Assembly (NCBI GenBank): GCA_963532425.1
Contig: CAUSKK010000013.1
Span: 3,931 to 67,930, forward strand
Length of the DNA stretch: 64,000 bases
Direction: 5' to 3'
DNA from: an uncultured Cardiobacteriaceae bacterium
GTDB taxonomy: Bacteria > Pseudomonadota > Gammaproteobacteria > Cardiobacteriales > Cardiobacteriaceae
Below the pieces are notes generated by a model that was given only the letters and a program-made list of their open reading frames with translations, did not search any database and was not told the origin of the DNA. Positions within the stretch are counted from its first letter, which is position 1. Each line of letters opens with the position of its first letter. Made by a program: the position numbers and the translations under genes. Of this stretch, positions 10,686 to 63,028 are shown in pieces.

Positions 10686-12102
10686 GGTTTTTTCCTTGGT
10701 TAAAAAAATCGTCAAGCACTTGCAGTGCGTCATATTCGGCCCACAGCGGGGCCAGCGCCGGCCAATCGGCCAGCCGCCGCCGCCACTGGCGAAAAATCGG
10801 GCCCCGGTGCAGCCGGGCCGCCAGTTCCACCGCCGCCCCGGGGGCCGCCCCCAGCCGCAGCCAGCGGTGCACCATCAGCAGGGCGTAGTAGGGCCCCCAG
10901 ACCATTTCCGGCGTCAGCATGGCCGGCAAATCGTCGCGGGCCCGGCGGCCGGCGGCGGGCAGGGCTTCCAGCTGGGCCCGGGTGAACGGCGCCCCGGCGC
11001 CCAGCACCCGCTCCGGCTCGTTTAACAGGGTCAGCAGCCCCGGCACCCGGGCCGTCCAGTGCCGCACCAGGGCGTCCTGGCTGGCCGGCGGCAGCGTGCC
11101 GAAAACCCGGAGCAGGTCGCGGTTGGTGAAGAAATCCGGGGCTGTGGCGAAATAGGGCACGTGCAGGCTCGGCGGCAGCTGGCCGAGCCAGCGGTAGAAA
11201 CGGGCGGGGCTGGGGAAAATTTGGTCGCGCAGGCCCGGGTCGCGCTGCCAGAGCTGAATCAGACTAGGAATGTCCGGGCAGTGGCAGAGGGCCAGCCAGG
11301 TGGCCGGGTCCCTGACCCGGGCGGCCAGAATGCCGATGGCGTTGGGTCGGCCCAGGCCCGGTTCCGAGCGAAGCGCTTCCGGTGGCAGGGCCGCCACACG
11401 GAAGCCCACCTCGGCCCGCCGGCCGAGCCACCGGGCCAGCCCGGCCCAGCGGCGGGGCGGGTCGTAGTGGAGGGCAGCGCGTAGCCAGCGTTGCTGGCGG
11501 GCCGGGTCAAGCAGACCCACTTCGGCCCCCAGGCAGCGTTTCAGCGTCGCCCGTTCGGCCCGGTCGAGCCGGGGCCCGAGCCGCCGCAGCCAGCGCCGGT
11601 CGGCCCGGCTGAAAAAGCGGGCACTGGCAATGAGCCCAATCTGGCGCGGCTGGCCGGCCGACCGCTGCCGTTGCCAGAGGGCGTGCAGGGCCCGGCGCCA
11701 GCGGTCGCCATCGAGCCGGTGCAAAGCCCGGAGCTCGGCGAAACGTTGCGGCCGGGTCAAACCCGCGAGGCCGGCCAACGCCAGCGCCGCCGTCGACCGG
11801 GCCCGTTCCCCCCGCCGCTCGCGCTCCGGCGCCGCTAGCAGCGGCAGAAAAAGGCCGGGCCGCCGGTGAAGCGCTTCGCCGGGGCGGAAATGGAGCGTCT
11901 GCCAGTCGGCGGCGGTCAGCCGGTAGCGGTTACTACGCAGCAGCCGGGCGCCGAGCAGGCCAATGGCCGACCAGCCCCGGACCGCCTGCCAGCGCTGCCA
12001 GGCGACGCGCAGCGGCTCCGGCAGGGGTGGGGGCTCTGCTCGGCACCCGGCCACCGGGGGAAGCGCTTCGGTGCCGACGGCCCGGGGGCGGGAGGCATTC
12101 AT
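10678..12102 (-). CDS. hypothetical 474-aa Arg/Trp/Leu-rich protein (operon member, no recognisable motif)
   Basis: Long ORF that is start/stop-coupled to both neighbours. Contains in-frame copies of the palindrome as E-A-L. I recognise no domain. Confidence 0.6.
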   Translation of the reverse strand: MNASRPRAVGTEALPPVAGCRAEPPPLPEPLRVAWQRWQAVRGWSAIGLLGARLLRSNRYRLTAADWQTLHFRPGEALHRRPGLFLPLLAAPERERRGERARSTAALALAGLAGLTRPQRFAELRALHRLDGDRWRRALHALWQRQRSAGQPRQIGLIASARFFSRADRRWLRRLGPRLDRAERATLKRCLGAEVGLLDPARQQRWLRAALHYDPPRRWAGLARWLGRRAEVGFRVAALPPEALRSEPGLGRPNAIGILAARVRDPATWLALCHCPDIPSLIQLWQRDPGLRDQIFPSPARFYRWLGQLPPSLHVPYFATAPDFFTNRDLLRVFGTLPPASQDALVRHWTARVPGLLTLLNEPERVLGAGAPFTRAQLEALPAAGRRARDDLPAMLTPEMVWGPYYALLMVHRWLRLGAAPGAAVELAARLHRGPIFRQWRRRLADWPALAPLWAEYDALQVLDDFFNQGKNHV

Positions 12103-12110
12103 GGGGGCGG

Positions 12111-13793
12111 CTAGGCCTTCGCGGCCAGGGCGTCATCGAATTGCAGGCGCGATTCGTAGAAGGCCAGCACCCGGCCGAAGCTGTCGAGCAGCTGGCGCTC
12201 CTGCATCATTTGGCGCACCTGGGCGCTGTTACCCCCGCCGACCTCGGCCAGGTCGTCGGCGGGCTGGGGCGCCGGCGGCTGTTCCCGGAAGGCCACCGCC
12301 AGGGCGCGCAGGGTCGGGCTGGCGCTCAGCCGTAGGGCCGCATAACGCTGCTGGCTGTGCTGGTAATAGAAATAACTGTCGCAGTGGCGAACGGTATAGA
12401 GAACCAGCAGCGAATAGCGTTCACCCCAGGGCTCGCCGGTGTCGTCATTGAAATCCGTCAGCAGGCTAAAGTCCATATTTTCCCAGCGCCGGGCCGCCGC
12501 CGAGTGGCCGAGGAAAAACTCCTCGGGCCGCTGGAAGAACAGCTTCAGGTGGGGATTGTGTTCGGCCTGGGCGGCCAGCACCCGTTCACGCTGGGCGCTG
12601 TTGAGCTGCTTCAGGAGCCACAGGTTATTGTCCTTGTAGTGGCCCATCGTCGGCTGCCGGCTGAGATATTCCACCAGAAAGGCCGTGCCCAGTTCGCTGA
12701 GCCAGCCGTGGTAGCTCTGGCTGCTCGTCAGCCAGCCGTGTTCAAAATAGCGCTGGGCCAGCGGCGTGCGAATCAGAGTTTCGGCCAGTTCGGCCACGTC
12801 CGCGCTGTGGGTCATTTCCAGCCAGAATTCCAGCCGGTGGACGCGGTGAATCAGCTGGCGGCGCAGGAAGTTATCGTCGCTCTCATTTTTATCGCTGCTG
12901 ATTTCCTCCAGTCCCAGCGCCTTCATCTCCTTGCTGAAGGCCAGCGGCGTCATGTGCCAACCGGCCTTGTCATGGCTGAGCGTCTGCCGAAGCCAGCCCT
13001 CCAGCGCCCGGGTGCTGGCGCTGTCCGGCAGCCGGGCCAGCAGAAGGCCGGCCGTCTCGCGCACGTTGCTGGAACGGTCCTTCAGGCAGGCTTCGATGAA
13101 GGGAGCGTCGGCCGGACTAAGGTTGTTCCGCAGCAGCTCCAGATAGGCCAGCCGGTGATTGGCCGGGGCCCCCTTCCAAATCTCCTCCACCCGGAGCCGG
13201 GCCGCCTCGGGATTTTCCCGGCGCAGGCTGCTGAGATGGGCGCGGCGACCGCTGAAATCCAGCTCCAGCAGCGGGTCGGCGTCCGGGGCCGGCGTGGTGG
13301 GGGCGCTGCCCAGCTCGGTGCGCAGGTCGTTCGGCAGTTCGGCGCCAAGCTGGGTCAGCAGCCAGCGGCCCCGGTCGTCCAGCAGGTCGAGCCGACCCTT
13401 GAGCCGTTTCACTTCGCCGCGCAGGAGCAGCCGTTGCAGGCTGGCTTCGTCCAGACAATGGCCACTCCGTTTCAGGGTCGCCAGGGCGTAATCGAGATAG
13501 TCGCGCTCGTCCTGTTCGAGCCAGGCGGTCAGCACCCGTCGGGCCGGGGCCGGCAGCACCCGGCCGTCCGGGGCCGGGGCCGGTGGTATCGGCTGCCAAT
13601 CATCCTGATGGGTTTCCAGCCGGGCGCCGCTGCGGTCGGAGCCGTAGGCCAGGGCCAGCAGGTCATAGGCCCGGGGCAGCGCTTCGGCCGGGGGCAGCCG
13701 GGCCACGGCTTCGGCCAGCGGGGGCGGGGGCGGCGGCAGGGGACCGGCGTCGAGGCCCATCAGGGCAGCATTGAATAGTTGGGGATTAAGCAT
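12111..13793 (-). CDS. hypothetical 561-aa helical protein, possibly DUF5691-like
   Basis: ATG 13793 ('MLNPQLFNAALMG') overlaps the SWIM gene stop (ATGCTTAA). 'LKDRSSNVRETAGLLLARLPDS' is HEAT-like. The DUF5691 assignment is from memory of SWIM-adjacent genes only. Confidence 0.6.
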   Translation of the reverse strand: MLNPQLFNAALMGLDAGPLPPPPPPLAEAVARLPPAEALPRAYDLLALAYGSDRSGARLETHQDDWQPIPPAPAPDGRVLPAPARRVLTAWLEQDERDYLDYALATLKRSGHCLDEASLQRLLLRGEVKRLKGRLDLLDDRGRWLLTQLGAELPNDLRTELGSAPTTPAPDADPLLELDFSGRRAHLSSLRRENPEAARLRVEEIWKGAPANHRLAYLELLRNNLSPADAPFIEACLKDRSSNVRETAGLLLARLPDSASTRALEGWLRQTLSHDKAGWHMTPLAFSKEMKALGLEEISSDKNESDDNFLRRQLIHRVHRLEFWLEMTHSADVAELAETLIRTPLAQRYFEHGWLTSSQSYHGWLSELGTAFLVEYLSRQPTMGHYKDNNLWLLKQLNSAQRERVLAAQAEHNPHLKLFFQRPEEFFLGHSAAARRWENMDFSLLTDFNDDTGEPWGERYSLLVLYTVRHCDSYFYYQHSQQRYAALRLSASPTLRALAVAFREQPPAPQPADDLAEVGGGNSAQVRQMMQERQLLDSFGRVLAFYESRLQFDDALAAKA

Positions 13794-49430: not shown

Positions 49431-49452
49431 ACCGTTAGATTTTTTCTAAAAC

Positions 49453-49478
49453 AAAGCCCTTTATTAAGGGCTTTTTAA
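49453..49478 (+). terminator. AT-rich intrinsic terminator at the left edge of the low-GC islet
   Basis: AAAGCCCTT-TATT-AAGGGCTTT followed by TTAAT. Confidence 0.65.
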
Positions 49479-49568
49479 TACTTTTACGAATTATTTAAAA
49501 GATTTTTACTCCTGGCATAAAAAATGCTCCTGCTTAAAATTAATAAATTTATTAAGGAAATAAAAAAA

Positions 49569-49979
49569 ATGACAGAAACAAACAATAGTAAGTCAGATAA
49601 GGAAAAATTAGATGAAATTCTAAGCACAATAGAGGAGGAAAATTATCTACTAACTAAAGATTATTTTGAACTAGAAACAGAACTAGAAAAATATTTCCAA
49701 ATTTGCACTTCTATTGTTGATAAAAATTTAAATTTAAAAAATGAAGCAGAATATGTTGCTGGCTTAATAAATGAGTTATTAGGTAAAACTGAAGACGCAA
49801 TAAATTTATTTCAGTCTGTTGTTGACGATAAAAATACTTCTAGCTATCCATACAAAAATAGTCTAGTTCGTCTCTTTCTTCAATTAACTCGCTCTTGGGA
49901 AGAAAACTTCTCTATAAGAGTAAAAGAAAAAAAGAAAGAAGACAAATATCTGCCACTAACTAAAGAAGAGCTTTTTTAA
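49569..49979 (+). CDS. islet ORF1: helical/TPR-like hypothetical protein (possibly the N-terminal part of one larger gene)
   Basis: ATG 49569 has an AAGGAA RBS; the ORF-track start 49524 has none. K/E/N/L-rich helical sequence. Ends at TAA directly after a T6 run. Confidence 0.6.
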   Translation: MTETNNSKSDKEKLDEILSTIEEENYLLTKDYFELETELEKYFQICTSIVDKNLNLKNEAEYVAGLINELLGKTEDAINLFQSVVDDKNTSSYPYKNSLVRLFLQLTRSWEENFSIRVKEKKKEDKYLPLTKEELF

Positions 49980-50074
49980 TAAATCAAATTAAAAAACTAT
50001 TTCTTGAAATAAAAAATATATTTATTAGCCAAGAATTAGATATAAGTATTTCTTTTTCAGAAATTTTATTACGG

Positions 50075-51379
50075 ATGTCCAGCGTGGTAGCAATAGAAGA
50101 TTTATTAGATAATAAGAAAGTTACCAATGAAAGAAAGAAATATCTTGAAAAAATATTAGAAATTAACAACGACGATGATAAATATAAAACTATAGCTAGA
50201 CATCATTTGGCAATGAACTTGACCGAAGACATTATTGCAAATAATGAATATATGGATAGTAATAAACTTGAAGAAAGGATTAGACATATTAAAGAAAACC
50301 TTAAATCCATATCACACGACAATATCGTCCTAGAAAAAATTCTAGATGCTATTGGTATAAGTAATAAAATATTTTATTTTTTATTAAAGGCCTATTTTTT
50401 TGTTAATAAAATTAAAAATAATTTAAAAATTCCAAAACCCAAAAATATAATGGACTATCTAATACATGAAACAAAAGTAGCTCACTATACCTCACCGTTA
50501 ATTGCTTACGAATTAATACATCAAGATTGTTCAAGAGTAAGATTAAATACAATAAATTACGTAAATGATCCTACTGAAGGTGTAGTTATAAGAAAATATT
50601 TAGGATTAAATCCTAGCAAAGATCCTTCTTATAATATGGGAGTCTTTATTTGTTGCTTTACTTTTAATTATGACAGTTTAAATCAATTTAGATTATATGG
50701 AAAAAATAATGGAATCGAAGCATCTGGTGTAAGTATCATTTTTAATAATGACTTCTTCAATAATAGCCATTATGAAGATAATTCTTTGATATATTCTAAT
50801 GACAAAGAAAATAATAATCAAAAGATAAGACTATATAGATGCATTTATATTGAGCCTAATAGTAATTATTTTCGCCTATCTAGACGCGACGAAATTACCT
50901 TCTATAAACAGTATAGAGATGAATTAAAACAAAATGAAATTGATAAGTTATGGATAGATTATAATGATCAAATCAACGAAATAGAAAGTGATATAAAAAA
51001 CCATCTTTATAGTATAAATAAATGTATTGAAAATATAAAAAATATCATGGATAAGGAAAAATATAAATCTGATATAAAAGATAATATTTTTAATATTATT
51101 AACGCAATAATATTGCCTTTACAATATTTAGTAAAACACGCTGCTTTTCAAGAGGAGCAGGAATGTAGAGTTATATATCTAATAGATAAGACAAATGATA
51201 AAATAAAAAAGAATATAGATAAAAAACTGATCTATGTTGAATATGTATCAGATACAAAAAAATATATAGATAAAATTTATTTTTCTCCTGGTGCGAAAGA
51301 TTATAAAGATTTTTTTGTATCTAAAGACTTTCCTGAATCTAAATTAAAAGATTCTTTAAATCCCTTTCGGAATAAATAA
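50075..51379 (+). CDS. islet ORF2: DUF2971-like protein (434 aa)
   Basis: Motif order 'YVNDPTEG', 'FICCFTFNYDSLNQFRLYG', 'SGVSIIFNNDFF', 'KHAAFQEEQECRVIY', 'IDKIYFSPG' matches my memory of DUF2971. No SD before ATG 50075, and the frame is open back to 49964. Confidence 0.75.
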   Translation: MSSVVAIEDLLDNKKVTNERKKYLEKILEINNDDDKYKTIARHHLAMNLTEDIIANNEYMDSNKLEERIRHIKENLKSISHDNIVLEKILDAIGISNKIFYFLLKAYFFVNKIKNNLKIPKPKNIMDYLIHETKVAHYTSPLIAYELIHQDCSRVRLNTINYVNDPTEGVVIRKYLGLNPSKDPSYNMGVFICCFTFNYDSLNQFRLYGKNNGIEASGVSIIFNNDFFNNSHYEDNSLIYSNDKENNNQKIRLYRCIYIEPNSNYFRLSRRDEITFYKQYRDELKQNEIDKLWIDYNDQINEIESDIKNHLYSINKCIENIKNIMDKEKYKSDIKDNIFNIINAIILPLQYLVKHAAFQEEQECRVIYLIDKTNDKIKKNIDKKLIYVEYVSDTKKYIDKIYFSPGAKDYKDFFVSKDFPESKLKDSLNPFRNK

Positions 51380-51466
51380 TCTAAATTATAGCAATTAATT
51401 TCAAATTTTAATTCTGTTTTATGAGCTAGCCAGCGAGAAATAAGTTGGCGTCATTCTGCCAGGCTA

Positions 51467-51838
51467 ATGGGAGGCATCTGGCTTTTCGCTCTGGCCCTAT
51501 TTCTTCTCCAATTAATCCTACCGGATCGGGCCGGTCGCGGGCCGGTGCAGACGGTCTTCTTTCTTGTACTAATCCTGCTGACCCTGCCCAGCACGCTGCT
51601 GCTCCTGGCCGACTGGCTGCGCGGGCAGCTCCGGGGCCGGGCCGGCATTCTGGCCGCCTATCTGCTATTTGTCGCTGCCGTCGCTGGCATCGGTGCCCTC
51701 ATTGGTTCTTTGCTGCTCCAGCCGGTGCCACTGCTGCCGCTGAAACCGGTCATCTTTGTTCATCTGCTGCTGGCGTTGGGACTGCTGGTCTGCACGCTGG
51801 GCGCACCGCCGGCCAAATTGCCTTGGCCTTCCCGTTAA
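51467..51838 (+). CDS. truncated paralogue of the 53291..53942 membrane-protein gene
   Basis: 123 aa, ~85% nt identity by eye to 53414-53790. Homology starts exactly at the islet edge. Lacks the N- and C-terminal parts of the longer copy. Confidence 0.55.
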   Translation: MGGIWLFALALFLLQLILPDRAGRGPVQTVFFLVLILLTLPSTLLLLADWLRGQLRGRAGILAAYLLFVAAVAGIGALIGSLLLQPVPLLPLKPVIFVHLLLALGLLVCTLGAPPAKLPWPSR

Positions 51839-53290: not shown

Positions 53291-53942
53291 ATGAACACTA
53301 GAAACACTGCCCTAACATTGGCCACCCTCGGCTTCAGCGCCGCCCTCGCCGCCAACGACGACCCCAACCGCCGGACCCGGGCCCGCCGCCGCAAAGCAGC
53401 CCGCCGGCACCGTTCCGCCCGGCTAATCGGGGGCATCTGGCTGTTCACCCTCGCCCTGTTTCTTCTCCAATTAATCCTGCCGGCCGACGCCGGCCGCGCG
53501 CCGGTGCAGAATGTCTTCTTTCTCGTCCTAATTCTGCTGGCGCTGCCCAGCACGCTGCTGCTCCTGGCCGACGAGCTACGCGGGCGGCTTCGGGGCCGGG
53601 CCGGCATTCTGGCCACCTACCTGCTCTTCGTTGCCGCCCGCCGGCATCGGTGCCCTCATCGGTTCTCTACTGCTTCGGCCGGTGCCCCTGCTGCCACTGA
53701 AGCTGGTCATCTTTGTTCATCTGCTGCTGATACTGGGCCTGCTGGCCAGCACGCTGGTTGCCGGCCTGACCGCCCTGCTAGGGTGGCTTTACCTGAAGGT
53801 TTACGGCCGGGCGCCGGGGCCGCTGCTGGGGCTGTTATTGAACCTGCTCAGTCTGGCCGGCGTCTACACGCTGGCCCAGCTGCTGAACCACCGGCTGCCA
53901 CTGGATAGCTGGCTGAATTTCCTCTGGCTTTTTCGTCTCTAG
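53291..53942 (+). pseudogene. polytopic membrane-protein gene split by a frameshift near 53634-53645
   Basis: Frame 1 (53291-~53640) and frame 2 (53631-53942) together align to the paralogue 51467..51838. The copy here reads GTTGCCGCCCGCCGGCATCGG where the paralogue has GTCGCTGCCGTCGCTGGCATCGG, a 2-nt difference. Confidence 0.7.
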
Positions 53943-62954: not shown

Positions 62955-63028
62955 GGGCCTATAGCTCAGTTGGTCAGAGCAGGCGACTCATAATCGCTTG
63001 GTCGGGGGTTCAAGTCCCTCTGGGCCTA
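62955..63028 (+). tRNA. ileX: tRNA with CAU anticodon, tRNA-Ile2 (lysidine-type) by similarity
   Basis: Cloverleaf folded by hand: acceptor GGGCCTA/TGGGCCT (two G-U pairs), D arm GCTC/GAGC, anticodon arm GGCGA-CTCATAA-TCGCT, T arm GGGGG-TTCAAGT-CCCTC. The anticodon arm and variable loop are identical to E. coli ileX as I remember it. Confidence 0.85.

Follow-up and report, generated by a model that had tools for sequence, protein, structure and literature searches.

A low-GC islet downstream of manA

The window analysed here, a 64,000-nt stretch of contig CAUSKK010000013.1 (GenBank assembly GCA_963532425.1) from an uncultured Cardiobacteriaceae bacterium, includes an islet of 24% GC (49431..51420) that exactly fills the gap from the stop codon of manA to the ATG of a downstream membrane-protein gene. 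The islet carries a gene for a protein with a tetratricopeptide repeat (TPR)-like N-terminal half and a C-terminal DUF2971 domain, which is disrupted in this genome by a frameshift. The islet and its gene, with all domains and motifs described below, are on the forward strand.

As judged by GC content over 200-nt intervals, a fall from ~0.60-0.65 to 0.18-0.31 occurs directly past the manA stop codon (49430), and recovery is seen at ~51420-51421, which coincides with the ATG of the next gene. The segment 49431-51427 has 24.4% GC as compared with 64.4% in the remainder of the window, where the GC content of every other 1-kb bin is at least 0.52. At third codon positions, the islet gene has 17% GC, as compared with 70-85% for the manA, EIID, methyltransferase and DUF1176 genes. 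A first-pass annotation, made from the sequence alone, had described the sharp drop after manA; this and the left edge agree with the values given here, while the right edge was placed slightly late, at 51.43-51.46 kb.

That annotation also named an assembly chimera as a finding that would overturn it. This was ruled out because the junctions recur in the related lineages and because two further assemblies, L001 (Logan SRR13363916) and L002 (ENA ERZ27284449), read across them. Across 6.9 kb, L001 differs from the window by one single-nucleotide polymorphism and one indel in a T run, and L002 is identical in the common range save for mismatches clustered at the end of the L002 contig. Junctions of the same type are present in five related lineages. 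The composition break and its junctions were thus confirmed as genuine.

The boundaries of the islet are conserved host sequences. The islet does not have the attributes of an integrase-mobilised island, as had been noted before: no integrase or transposase was found at the islet, Rfam and ARAGORN searches detected no RNA gene in or near it that could serve as a target (the nearest tRNA gene is at 62955), and a repeat search gave only low-complexity AT-rich matches, with no convincing terminal direct or inverted repeats.

The islet cargo is a single gene with a frameshift

The islet had been described as holding a gene pair, referred to here as ORF1 (open reading frame 1; 49524/49569..49979) and ORF2 (50075..51379). 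Both reading frames are present, as are the four motif strings quoted for ORF2. However, they are the two parts of one disrupted gene (49569..51379). The best database match of ORF2, besides itself, was P0002, a protein of 603 aa encoded at the same locus in L001, and in P0002 a linker of 33 aa joins ORF2 to ORF1, the latter translated from the ATG at 49569. When one T is added to the T6 run at 49972..49977, which is T7 in the intact L001 allele, an uninterrupted ORF of 603 codons identical to P0002 is obtained. The orthologues P0003-P0006 and the partial gene in L091 are likewise uninterrupted at this point, as are all other alleles. Hence, given that insertion of a T restores P0002 and that the other alleles stay open at the site, the islet cargo is one 603-codon gene, inactivated here because a T7 run has lost one T.

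The start codon is the ATG at 49569 (MTETNN..., common to the homologues) and not that at 49524. The 5' fragment (49569..49979, 136 aa) encodes the first part of the helical TPR-like domain, and the 3' fragment (50075..51379, 434 aa) encodes the remainder of that domain and the complete DUF2971 domain. No Shine-Dalgarno-like sequence is present upstream of the ATG of ORF2. All 46 residues that are invariant in the family are kept in the window allele. The length of the T run, T6 in the window and L002 and T7 in L001, is the only coding difference between these near-identical strains, and the locus therefore offers a natural experiment in which an intact and a frameshifted allele can be compared.

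The frameshift context (49969-49979) reads CUU-UUU-UAA, and if tRNA-Phe slipped by -1 at the stop codon, the product would be exactly P0002. Low-level read-through of the broken window allele is conceivable from this sequence context. Recurrent switching between T6 and T7 was considered and dropped, as L002 is identical to the window and hence just two states are represented.

Structure of the encoded protein

In an AlphaFold2 (AF2) model built with an alignment of 82 sequences, residues 10-290 form an all-helical repeat domain with a predicted local distance difference test score (pLDDT) of mostly 76-97; for the full-length model the pLDDT is 78 and the predicted template modelling score 0.80. 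The best PDB fold matches of the N-terminal half were the TPR domains of LGN, Pex5, KLC, IFIT5 and Rap (probability up to 1.0 and TMt 0.3-0.46, at E-values of only 0.04-0.3), and the TPR half dominated the Foldseek results obtained with the full-length model. The predicted fold is that of a superhelix of alpha-alpha hairpins. Canonical TPRs (TPR_1/TPR_2) were found in 68 of the 82 more distant relatives, and 29 of these 82 matched TPR-S, the Pfam 'sensor' TPR family. The helical, TPR-like character that the first-pass annotation had ascribed to this part of the protein is thus supported by the model, the fold matches and the relatives. A search with the N-terminal part only returned three fragments and no fusion to another effector, and the idea of modular reuse of this half was dropped.

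The C-terminal part (50435..51376, aa 290-603) is a DUF2971 domain, predicted to be ADP-ribosyltransferase (ART)-like, with a long variable helical insert at aa 441-520. When the C-terminal 314 aa were compared alone with PF11185, the score was 23.9 bits (E = 1.1e-4), above the gathering cut-off of 22, and the 434-aa ORF2 scored 21.5 bits, just below it. PF11185 was matched by 71 of the 82 homologues (E < 0.01). On these profile matches, membership of DUF2971 was established as proposed earlier. Relatives of ~300 aa that consist of the domain only also exist, and the effector is therefore modular.

The earlier statement that DUF2971 has no assigned biochemistry is out of date. In a 2025 survey, the family was predicted to belong to the ADP-ribosyltransferase superfamily, with DarT, AbiGi and Tox-ART-HYD1 as its nearest neighbours; features reported for it are helical inserts of unusual size, a Tyr conserved as motif II and an ExE as motif III (PMC12522546). 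This layout matches the model and the invariant residues of the islet protein. Positions invariant in the 82 sequences include H306-Y307, R325, N333-D334-P335-x-E337-G338, C363-F364-T365, Y377-G378-K379, K523-H524 and E530-x-E532-C533-R534. By analogy with the published motif scheme (PMC12522546), H306-Y307 (VAHYTS, 50483..50488) is the candidate for ART motif I, Y377 (LNQFRLYGK, 50696..50698) for motif II and E530-x-E532 (QEEQECR, 51155..51163), at the start of the beta strand that follows the helical insert, for motif III (ExE). All three candidate motifs of the ART set (I, H/R; II, Y; III, ExE) would thus be present.

The domain-only model has a pLDDT of 71, with values of 40-60 in the catalytic core. 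In a Foldseek search of the PDB with this model, DarT/DarTG structures accounted for five of the top eight matches (12 at E <= 5), none of them significant: for 7omu, 7yk3, 7omv, 7omy, 7omx and 7omw, E-values were 0.28-3.9, probabilities at most 0.25 and TM scores 0.13-0.27.

Alleles and alternative cargo at the manA-proximal site

Related loci were found through the cargo (L084-L087) and through the flank, by way of manA homologues of 75-92% identity (L091, L093, L094 and L095-L097). The closest homologues of the islet gene, in L084/L085, L086 and L087, are at exactly the same site, and the flank sampling gave further TPR-DUF2971 alleles in L091 and in L093, the latter with the gene start only. 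A TPR-DUF2971 gene occupies the site in six of the eight sampled lineages, that of the window included. In the two others (L094 and L095-L097), a low-GC gene (mostly 25-39% GC) for an FRG-domain protein is found instead, which matches the PADLOC candidate PDC-S15 with E-values of 1e-56 to 1e-64. For both cargo types, the left bound is the manA terminator hairpin and the right bound is the start codon of the gene for a 190-aa membrane protein. The site next to manA is thus a hotspot, at which related genomes carry differing candidate defence genes, and it provides a clean case of two alternative cargo types. The comparison of related genomes that the first-pass annotation had recommended therefore returned other cargo in two lineages together with divergent alleles in five.

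The FRG gene is itself split, into parts of 92 and 245/270 aa, in L095 (7392-8488) and in L096 and L097 (2594-3690 in each). In L094 it is continuous over the equivalent region, and its 3' end is cut by the contig. As the window gene and the FRG gene of L095-L097 are broken, both types of hotspot cargo occur in disrupted form.

The full-length homologues P0003, P0004 and P0006 share 45-57% identity with the window protein, as against 86-98% for the flanking proteins, and the islets of the L084-L087 lineages and the window have 21-29% GC. At the DNA level the alleles are mosaic. The window and L087 share 92-96% identity across the left junction and on into the gene for its first ~200 nt, and the window is 90-93% identical to L084 and L086 over the last ~100 nt and the 3' untranslated region (UTR), whereas identity between alleles in the gene interior is 50-70%. 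The variability is also unevenly distributed in the protein. Mean pairwise identity among five alleles is 62% for aa 1-100, 43% for aa 101-175 and 32% for aa 176-290, rises to 64% in the core (aa 291-440), falls to 45% in the helical insert (aa 441-520), which also has large indels, and is 69% for aa 521-603. In this series of divergent alleles, the variable regions point to the likely determinants of specificity.

Exchange of cargo by homologous recombination via the flanks would be the simplest mechanism for this pattern. The first-pass annotation had concluded from the composition that the islet was a recent, un-ameliorated acquisition. This does not hold because five related lineages have divergent alleles at this very site, and so the gene is either old or continually exchanged at the site. 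In the search for an empty site, an exact look-up of the manA protein retrieved nothing but the same strain. In L003, the nearest GTDB genome, manA is 59% identical and is followed by other genes, and this genome gives no information on the site.

Distribution and base composition of the family

For the TPR-DUF2971 family, 1867 matches (90% clustering) were obtained among the candidates scored. At 50% identity the family falls into 651 clusters, 230 of them with E < 1e-30. Few members are named; these are annotated as 'tetratricopeptide repeat protein' and come from Rothia and Neisseria iguanae, members of host-associated genera. The Rothia gene has 46% GC in surroundings of 61%, and the N. 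iguanae gene 39% in surroundings of 49%. Among metagenomic loci whose flanks reached 2 kb or more, the part coding for DUF2971 was below the rest of the contig in 44 of 44 cases, by a mean of 15.6 points (range 7 to 30). Low GC is therefore a family-wide trait, of which the window is the extreme case, and it does not follow from an un-ameliorated composition that the islet is recent. For this family, even an extreme GC drop is no evidence of recent transfer.

No significant match was obtained among the viral structures of BFVD, a tblastn search of phage genomes gave no match, and tblastn of the domain against the PLSDB plasmids gave just two weak matches, to DUF2971 proteins of Streptococcus.

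In N. iguanae (L090 794-9629, PXYY01000060), the homologue lies downstream of a Fic gene and the type I restriction-modification genes hsdM and hsdS. A stretch of 2.9 kb with no called gene separates it from these genes and may be a degraded hsdR. When 84 neighbours of distant, metagenomic members were scanned with PADLOC, only PDC-S05 and PDC-S23 were seen among the matches listed (25 of 41 families); each was matched by three members, which are unattributed and may be housekeeping look-alikes. In Rothia-like contigs, the TPR-DUF2971 gene is flanked by paralogous genes for proteins of 241, 349, 201 and 452 aa with 32-54% mutual identity and no Pfam family (L107 7400-9310 and 12362-12964; L114 8038-9084 and 11197-13836).

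Comparison with known systems

For DUF2971, the link with ADP-ribosyltransferases is recent, as is that with phage defence, which comes from one lactococcal protein. This protein, Aristaios, is a 316-aa DUF2971 protein encoded by a lactococcal plasmid that was shown in 2024 to protect against phage in an abortive-infection manner (PMC11381338), and according to a later review it interferes with phage transcription by a mechanism that is unknown (PMC13064643). Like the islet gene, Aristaios (Lactococcus plasmid pUCCL641_199) is a single gene of family PF11185 with no partner antitoxin; its fold as predicted by AlphaFold is ADP-ribosyltransferase-like and its phenotype is of the abortive-infection type. 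Unlike the islet protein, it consists of the domain only, with no TPR-like N-terminal half, and is plasmid-borne in a Gram-positive host. A role of DUF2971 as an ART-like domain in defence has been published before. Absent from the literature searched are the subfamily with fused TPRs, the hypervariability of its alleles at a dedicated hotspot and AT-richness throughout the family. The TPR-fused subfamily is much larger than what is known for DUF2971 in defence, and it is missed by PADLOC v2.

DarT of the DarTG system (PDB 7OMU, 7OMV, 7YK3) provides the best fold matches of the C-terminal domain and shares conserved motifs of the His/Tyr/Glu type. However, the islet protein differs from DarT in its large helical inserts, in an ExE in place of a single catalytic Glu, and in the N-terminal TPR-like domain. 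Nor was a DarG macrodomain partner, or any other partner gene, found in or next to the islet, and no DarG-like or PARG-like gene was detected in the window ORFs scanned to ~58.6 kb. In L084, a microbial PARG-like (PF10021) gene (11652-12467) is located beside a Sel1/TPR gene, ~6.4 kb downstream of the TPR-DUF2971 gene, and is probably not a partner.

The islet protein resembles the TPR-S class and systems of the Avs/STAND and Craspase TPR-CHAT types in that it joins a superhelix of repeats to a predicted toxic effector, with most of the variability in the repeat region. The islet protein differs from these in that it includes neither an NTPase/STAND module nor a protease, and the repeats of the window allele are too divergent for Pfam TPR. 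The sensor function of the TPR-like half is putative. The PADLOC candidate PDC-S15 (FRG domain, PF08867) resembles the islet gene in its identical site, single-gene form and low GC. It is no homologue, however, but a member of an unrelated family, and the two cargo types exclude each other at the site.

Proposed role of the islet gene

The reading preferred here, with a probability of about 0.55, is that the islet gene is a defence candidate of the single-gene, sensor-effector kind, in an allele inactivated by the frameshift. The intact protein would act as a sensor and effector of the abortive-infection type in one polypeptide. A fast-evolving TPR-like superhelix, perhaps together with the variable helical insert, would keep the C-terminal DarT-like ART domain inactive, and binding of a phage-derived ligand would free it. 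The enzyme would then transfer ADP-ribose from NAD+ to nucleic acid or to a core protein of the host or phage, and phage gene expression would stop. This sensor logic is suggested by the peak of variability in aa 176-290 and the insert as compared with the conserved catalytic core, by the TPR-S matches among the relatives and by the domain-only relatives. New alleles and alternative cargo would be swapped in by homologous recombination through the conserved flanks, for which no integrase is needed, and the persistent AT-richness would hold basal expression low. A role in defence or abortive infection, which the first-pass annotation had suggested, is made plausible by the validated Abi-like activity of Aristaios and by the presence of the PDC-S15 candidate at the same site elsewhere. 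The location of the N. iguanae homologue downstream of Fic, hsdM and hsdS also speaks for such a role, but neighbourhood evidence of this kind is thin outside the genus of the window.

A wider proposal, which is possible rather than probable, is that the many TPR-DUF2971 proteins, with at least 650 clusters at 50% identity, form a class of immune sensors that act as one polypeptide. The hypervariable superhelix would recognise phage proteins and release a DarT-like ART, AT-richness maintained in every host would serve as built-in control of expression, and in this genus alleles would be swapped at the hotspot, possibly with ON/OFF control by the T tract.

Several points weigh against a sensor-effector role in defence. 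Catalysis and phage protection by TPR-DUF2971 proteins are what we infer from relatives and motifs, and the likeness to Aristaios is at the level of the family. The DarT fold matches are non-significant and the catalytic core of the model is of low confidence, so that the modelled structure gives weak support to a transferase fold. When the PDB was searched by sequence, with the single domain as well as with profiles of the whole family and of the domain only, all matches were to TPR proteins or designed coiled coils. The islet proteins were not recognised in PADLOC v2, NCBIfam or PHROGs. In PADLOC-DB v2.0.0, which the first-pass annotation had suggested as a check, ORF2 matched 0 families and ORF1 gave noise-level matches only (E >= 0.006); this release (2023) predates the description of Aristaios (2024). 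The window allele has no Pfam TPR match above threshold, the best being TPR_12 with E = 0.12, and precomputed TPR matches are absent for P0002-P0006. An enrichment of the family as a whole in defence islands was considered and dropped, as the neighbour scan gave only the PDC-S05 and PDC-S23 matches among the 25 of 41 families listed. Finally, the window copy is frameshifted and hence probably non-functional in this strain.

The strongest alternative, although it is unlikely, is that the gene is a dead remnant, a decaying and functionless pseudogene in an islet that persists only because it is yet to be deleted. The T6 frameshift in the window and L002 fits with such decay, as do the degraded state of the adjoining membrane-protein gene and the split FRG cargo of L095-L097. 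However, the ORF is intact in the sister strain L001, with the window coding sequence otherwise identical, 46 of 46 family-invariant residues are kept, and the orthologous alleles in L084-L087 and L091 are open.

It is improbable that the protein is a secreted or contact-delivered toxin that ADP-ribosylates targets in host cells or competing bacteria, and not an antiphage protein. Its N-terminus (MTETNNSKSDKEKL...) is hydrophilic and shows by eye no obvious signal-peptide-like hydrophobic stretch, and no genes for a secretion system, immunity protein or delivery domain are found in or beside the islet. A hypervariable TPR part fused to an effector also fits a sensor better than a delivery module, and the gene found at the site in its place is a candidate for defence. 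A toxin would nevertheless accord with the host-associated origin of the named relatives (Rothia and Neisseria) and with the survey, where ~18% of DUF2971 proteins were predicted to be effectors in a family found through Legionella effectors (PMC12522546).

More doubtful still is a lineage-conserved regulatory or housekeeping TPR protein, the DUF2971 domain of which would modify an endogenous target, with low GC and divergence reflecting relaxed constraint. While the gene is at the same site in six of eight sampled lineages and forms its own terminator-insulated transcription unit, such a role is difficult to reconcile with presence/absence polymorphism and replacement by an unrelated FRG gene, with the contrast between 45-57% identity for this protein and 86-98% for its neighbours, with the mosaic breakpoints, and with a frameshift that is tolerated in the window strain. 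Least probable is that the T6/T7 run is an ON/OFF phase switch, or that -1 ribosomal slippage occurs at CUU-UUU-UAA, leaving the window copy reversibly OFF: homopolymer length is the sole coding difference between near-identical strains and a slip on UUU before UAA would yield exactly P0002, but the two states are represented by effectively two strains, a sequencing or assembly error is possible, and runs of six to seven T are short for high-rate slippage.

Flanking elements and neighbouring genes

Regardless of the cargo type, every related locus has a hairpin after manA, mostly of the form GCCCTCC-TTTT-GGAGGGC. In the window, the equivalent element (49453..49479, forward strand) is an intrinsic-terminator-like hairpin (AAAGCCCUU/AAGGGCUUU) followed by a U run, with a folding free energy of -14.8 kcal/mol and z = -3.7. 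This hairpin marks the left recombination flank. On the right, the recombination flank comprises the final ~100 nt of the gene and the 3' UTR (51380..51420, forward strand); the latter retains 90-93% conservation even between alleles that diverge elsewhere.

A TGGCAT-N5-ATGCT motif in the 5' UTR (49513..49528, forward strand) is similar to either a sigma-54 -24/-12 element or an inverted repeat of the form GCA-N7-TGC. Its position is kept in L084, L086, L087, L091 and L093, the alleles of which otherwise diverge and mostly have it as CTAGCAC-N5-ATGCT, and it is absent from the UTR of the FRG cargo. A sigma-54 promoter was considered and dropped: the window has no second match, but chance would give 0.65 matches, so that the motif on its own lacks statistical significance there, and the GG is AG in the other alleles. 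Further downstream, an A8 run (49562-49569) lies between a Shine-Dalgarno-like AAGGA and the ATG, its last A being the A of the ATG, and is one A shorter in L087. This second length-variable homopolymer is in a position where it could tune translation.

To the right of the islet, the window carries a degraded copy of the conserved gene for the 190-aa membrane protein (51421..51838, forward strand). An 8-bp deletion (ACCCGCAA) directly follows the ATG, and in its 3' part the frame departs from that of the 190-aa orthologue, the ORF ending at 123 aa. A second copy of this gene is found 1.9 kb downstream (53291-53942), with 85% identity over 348 bp (53413-53757). It is fused to the N-terminus of another gene, a homologue of the L084 gene for a 180-aa protein, and is also out of frame.

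Besides manA and the membrane-protein gene, the neighbours include the methyltransferase and DUF1176 genes, and genes for AhpF/AhpC, a LysR regulator and a HAD hydrolase are located 3-7 kb further on. The host belongs to an uncultured genus of ~62% GC, the nearest named relative being Cardiobacteriaceae. Against the GTDB species set, the best match of the window manA was 59% identical (a Cardiobacteriaceae metagenome-assembled genome), followed by Pasteurellaceae at 45-49%, and the close relatives all come from ENA or Logan metagenome assemblies. A protein of 738 aa (P0382), encoded by another contig (9744 bp), shares a 90% cluster with the 401-aa ManA and may be a fusion or a read-through call. 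A GH6 glycoside-hydrolase gene is present between the membrane-protein and methyltransferase genes in L084 (6105-7160), L085 and L095 (9264-10319) and absent in the window and L086; the region directly downstream of the hotspot is therefore also structurally variable.

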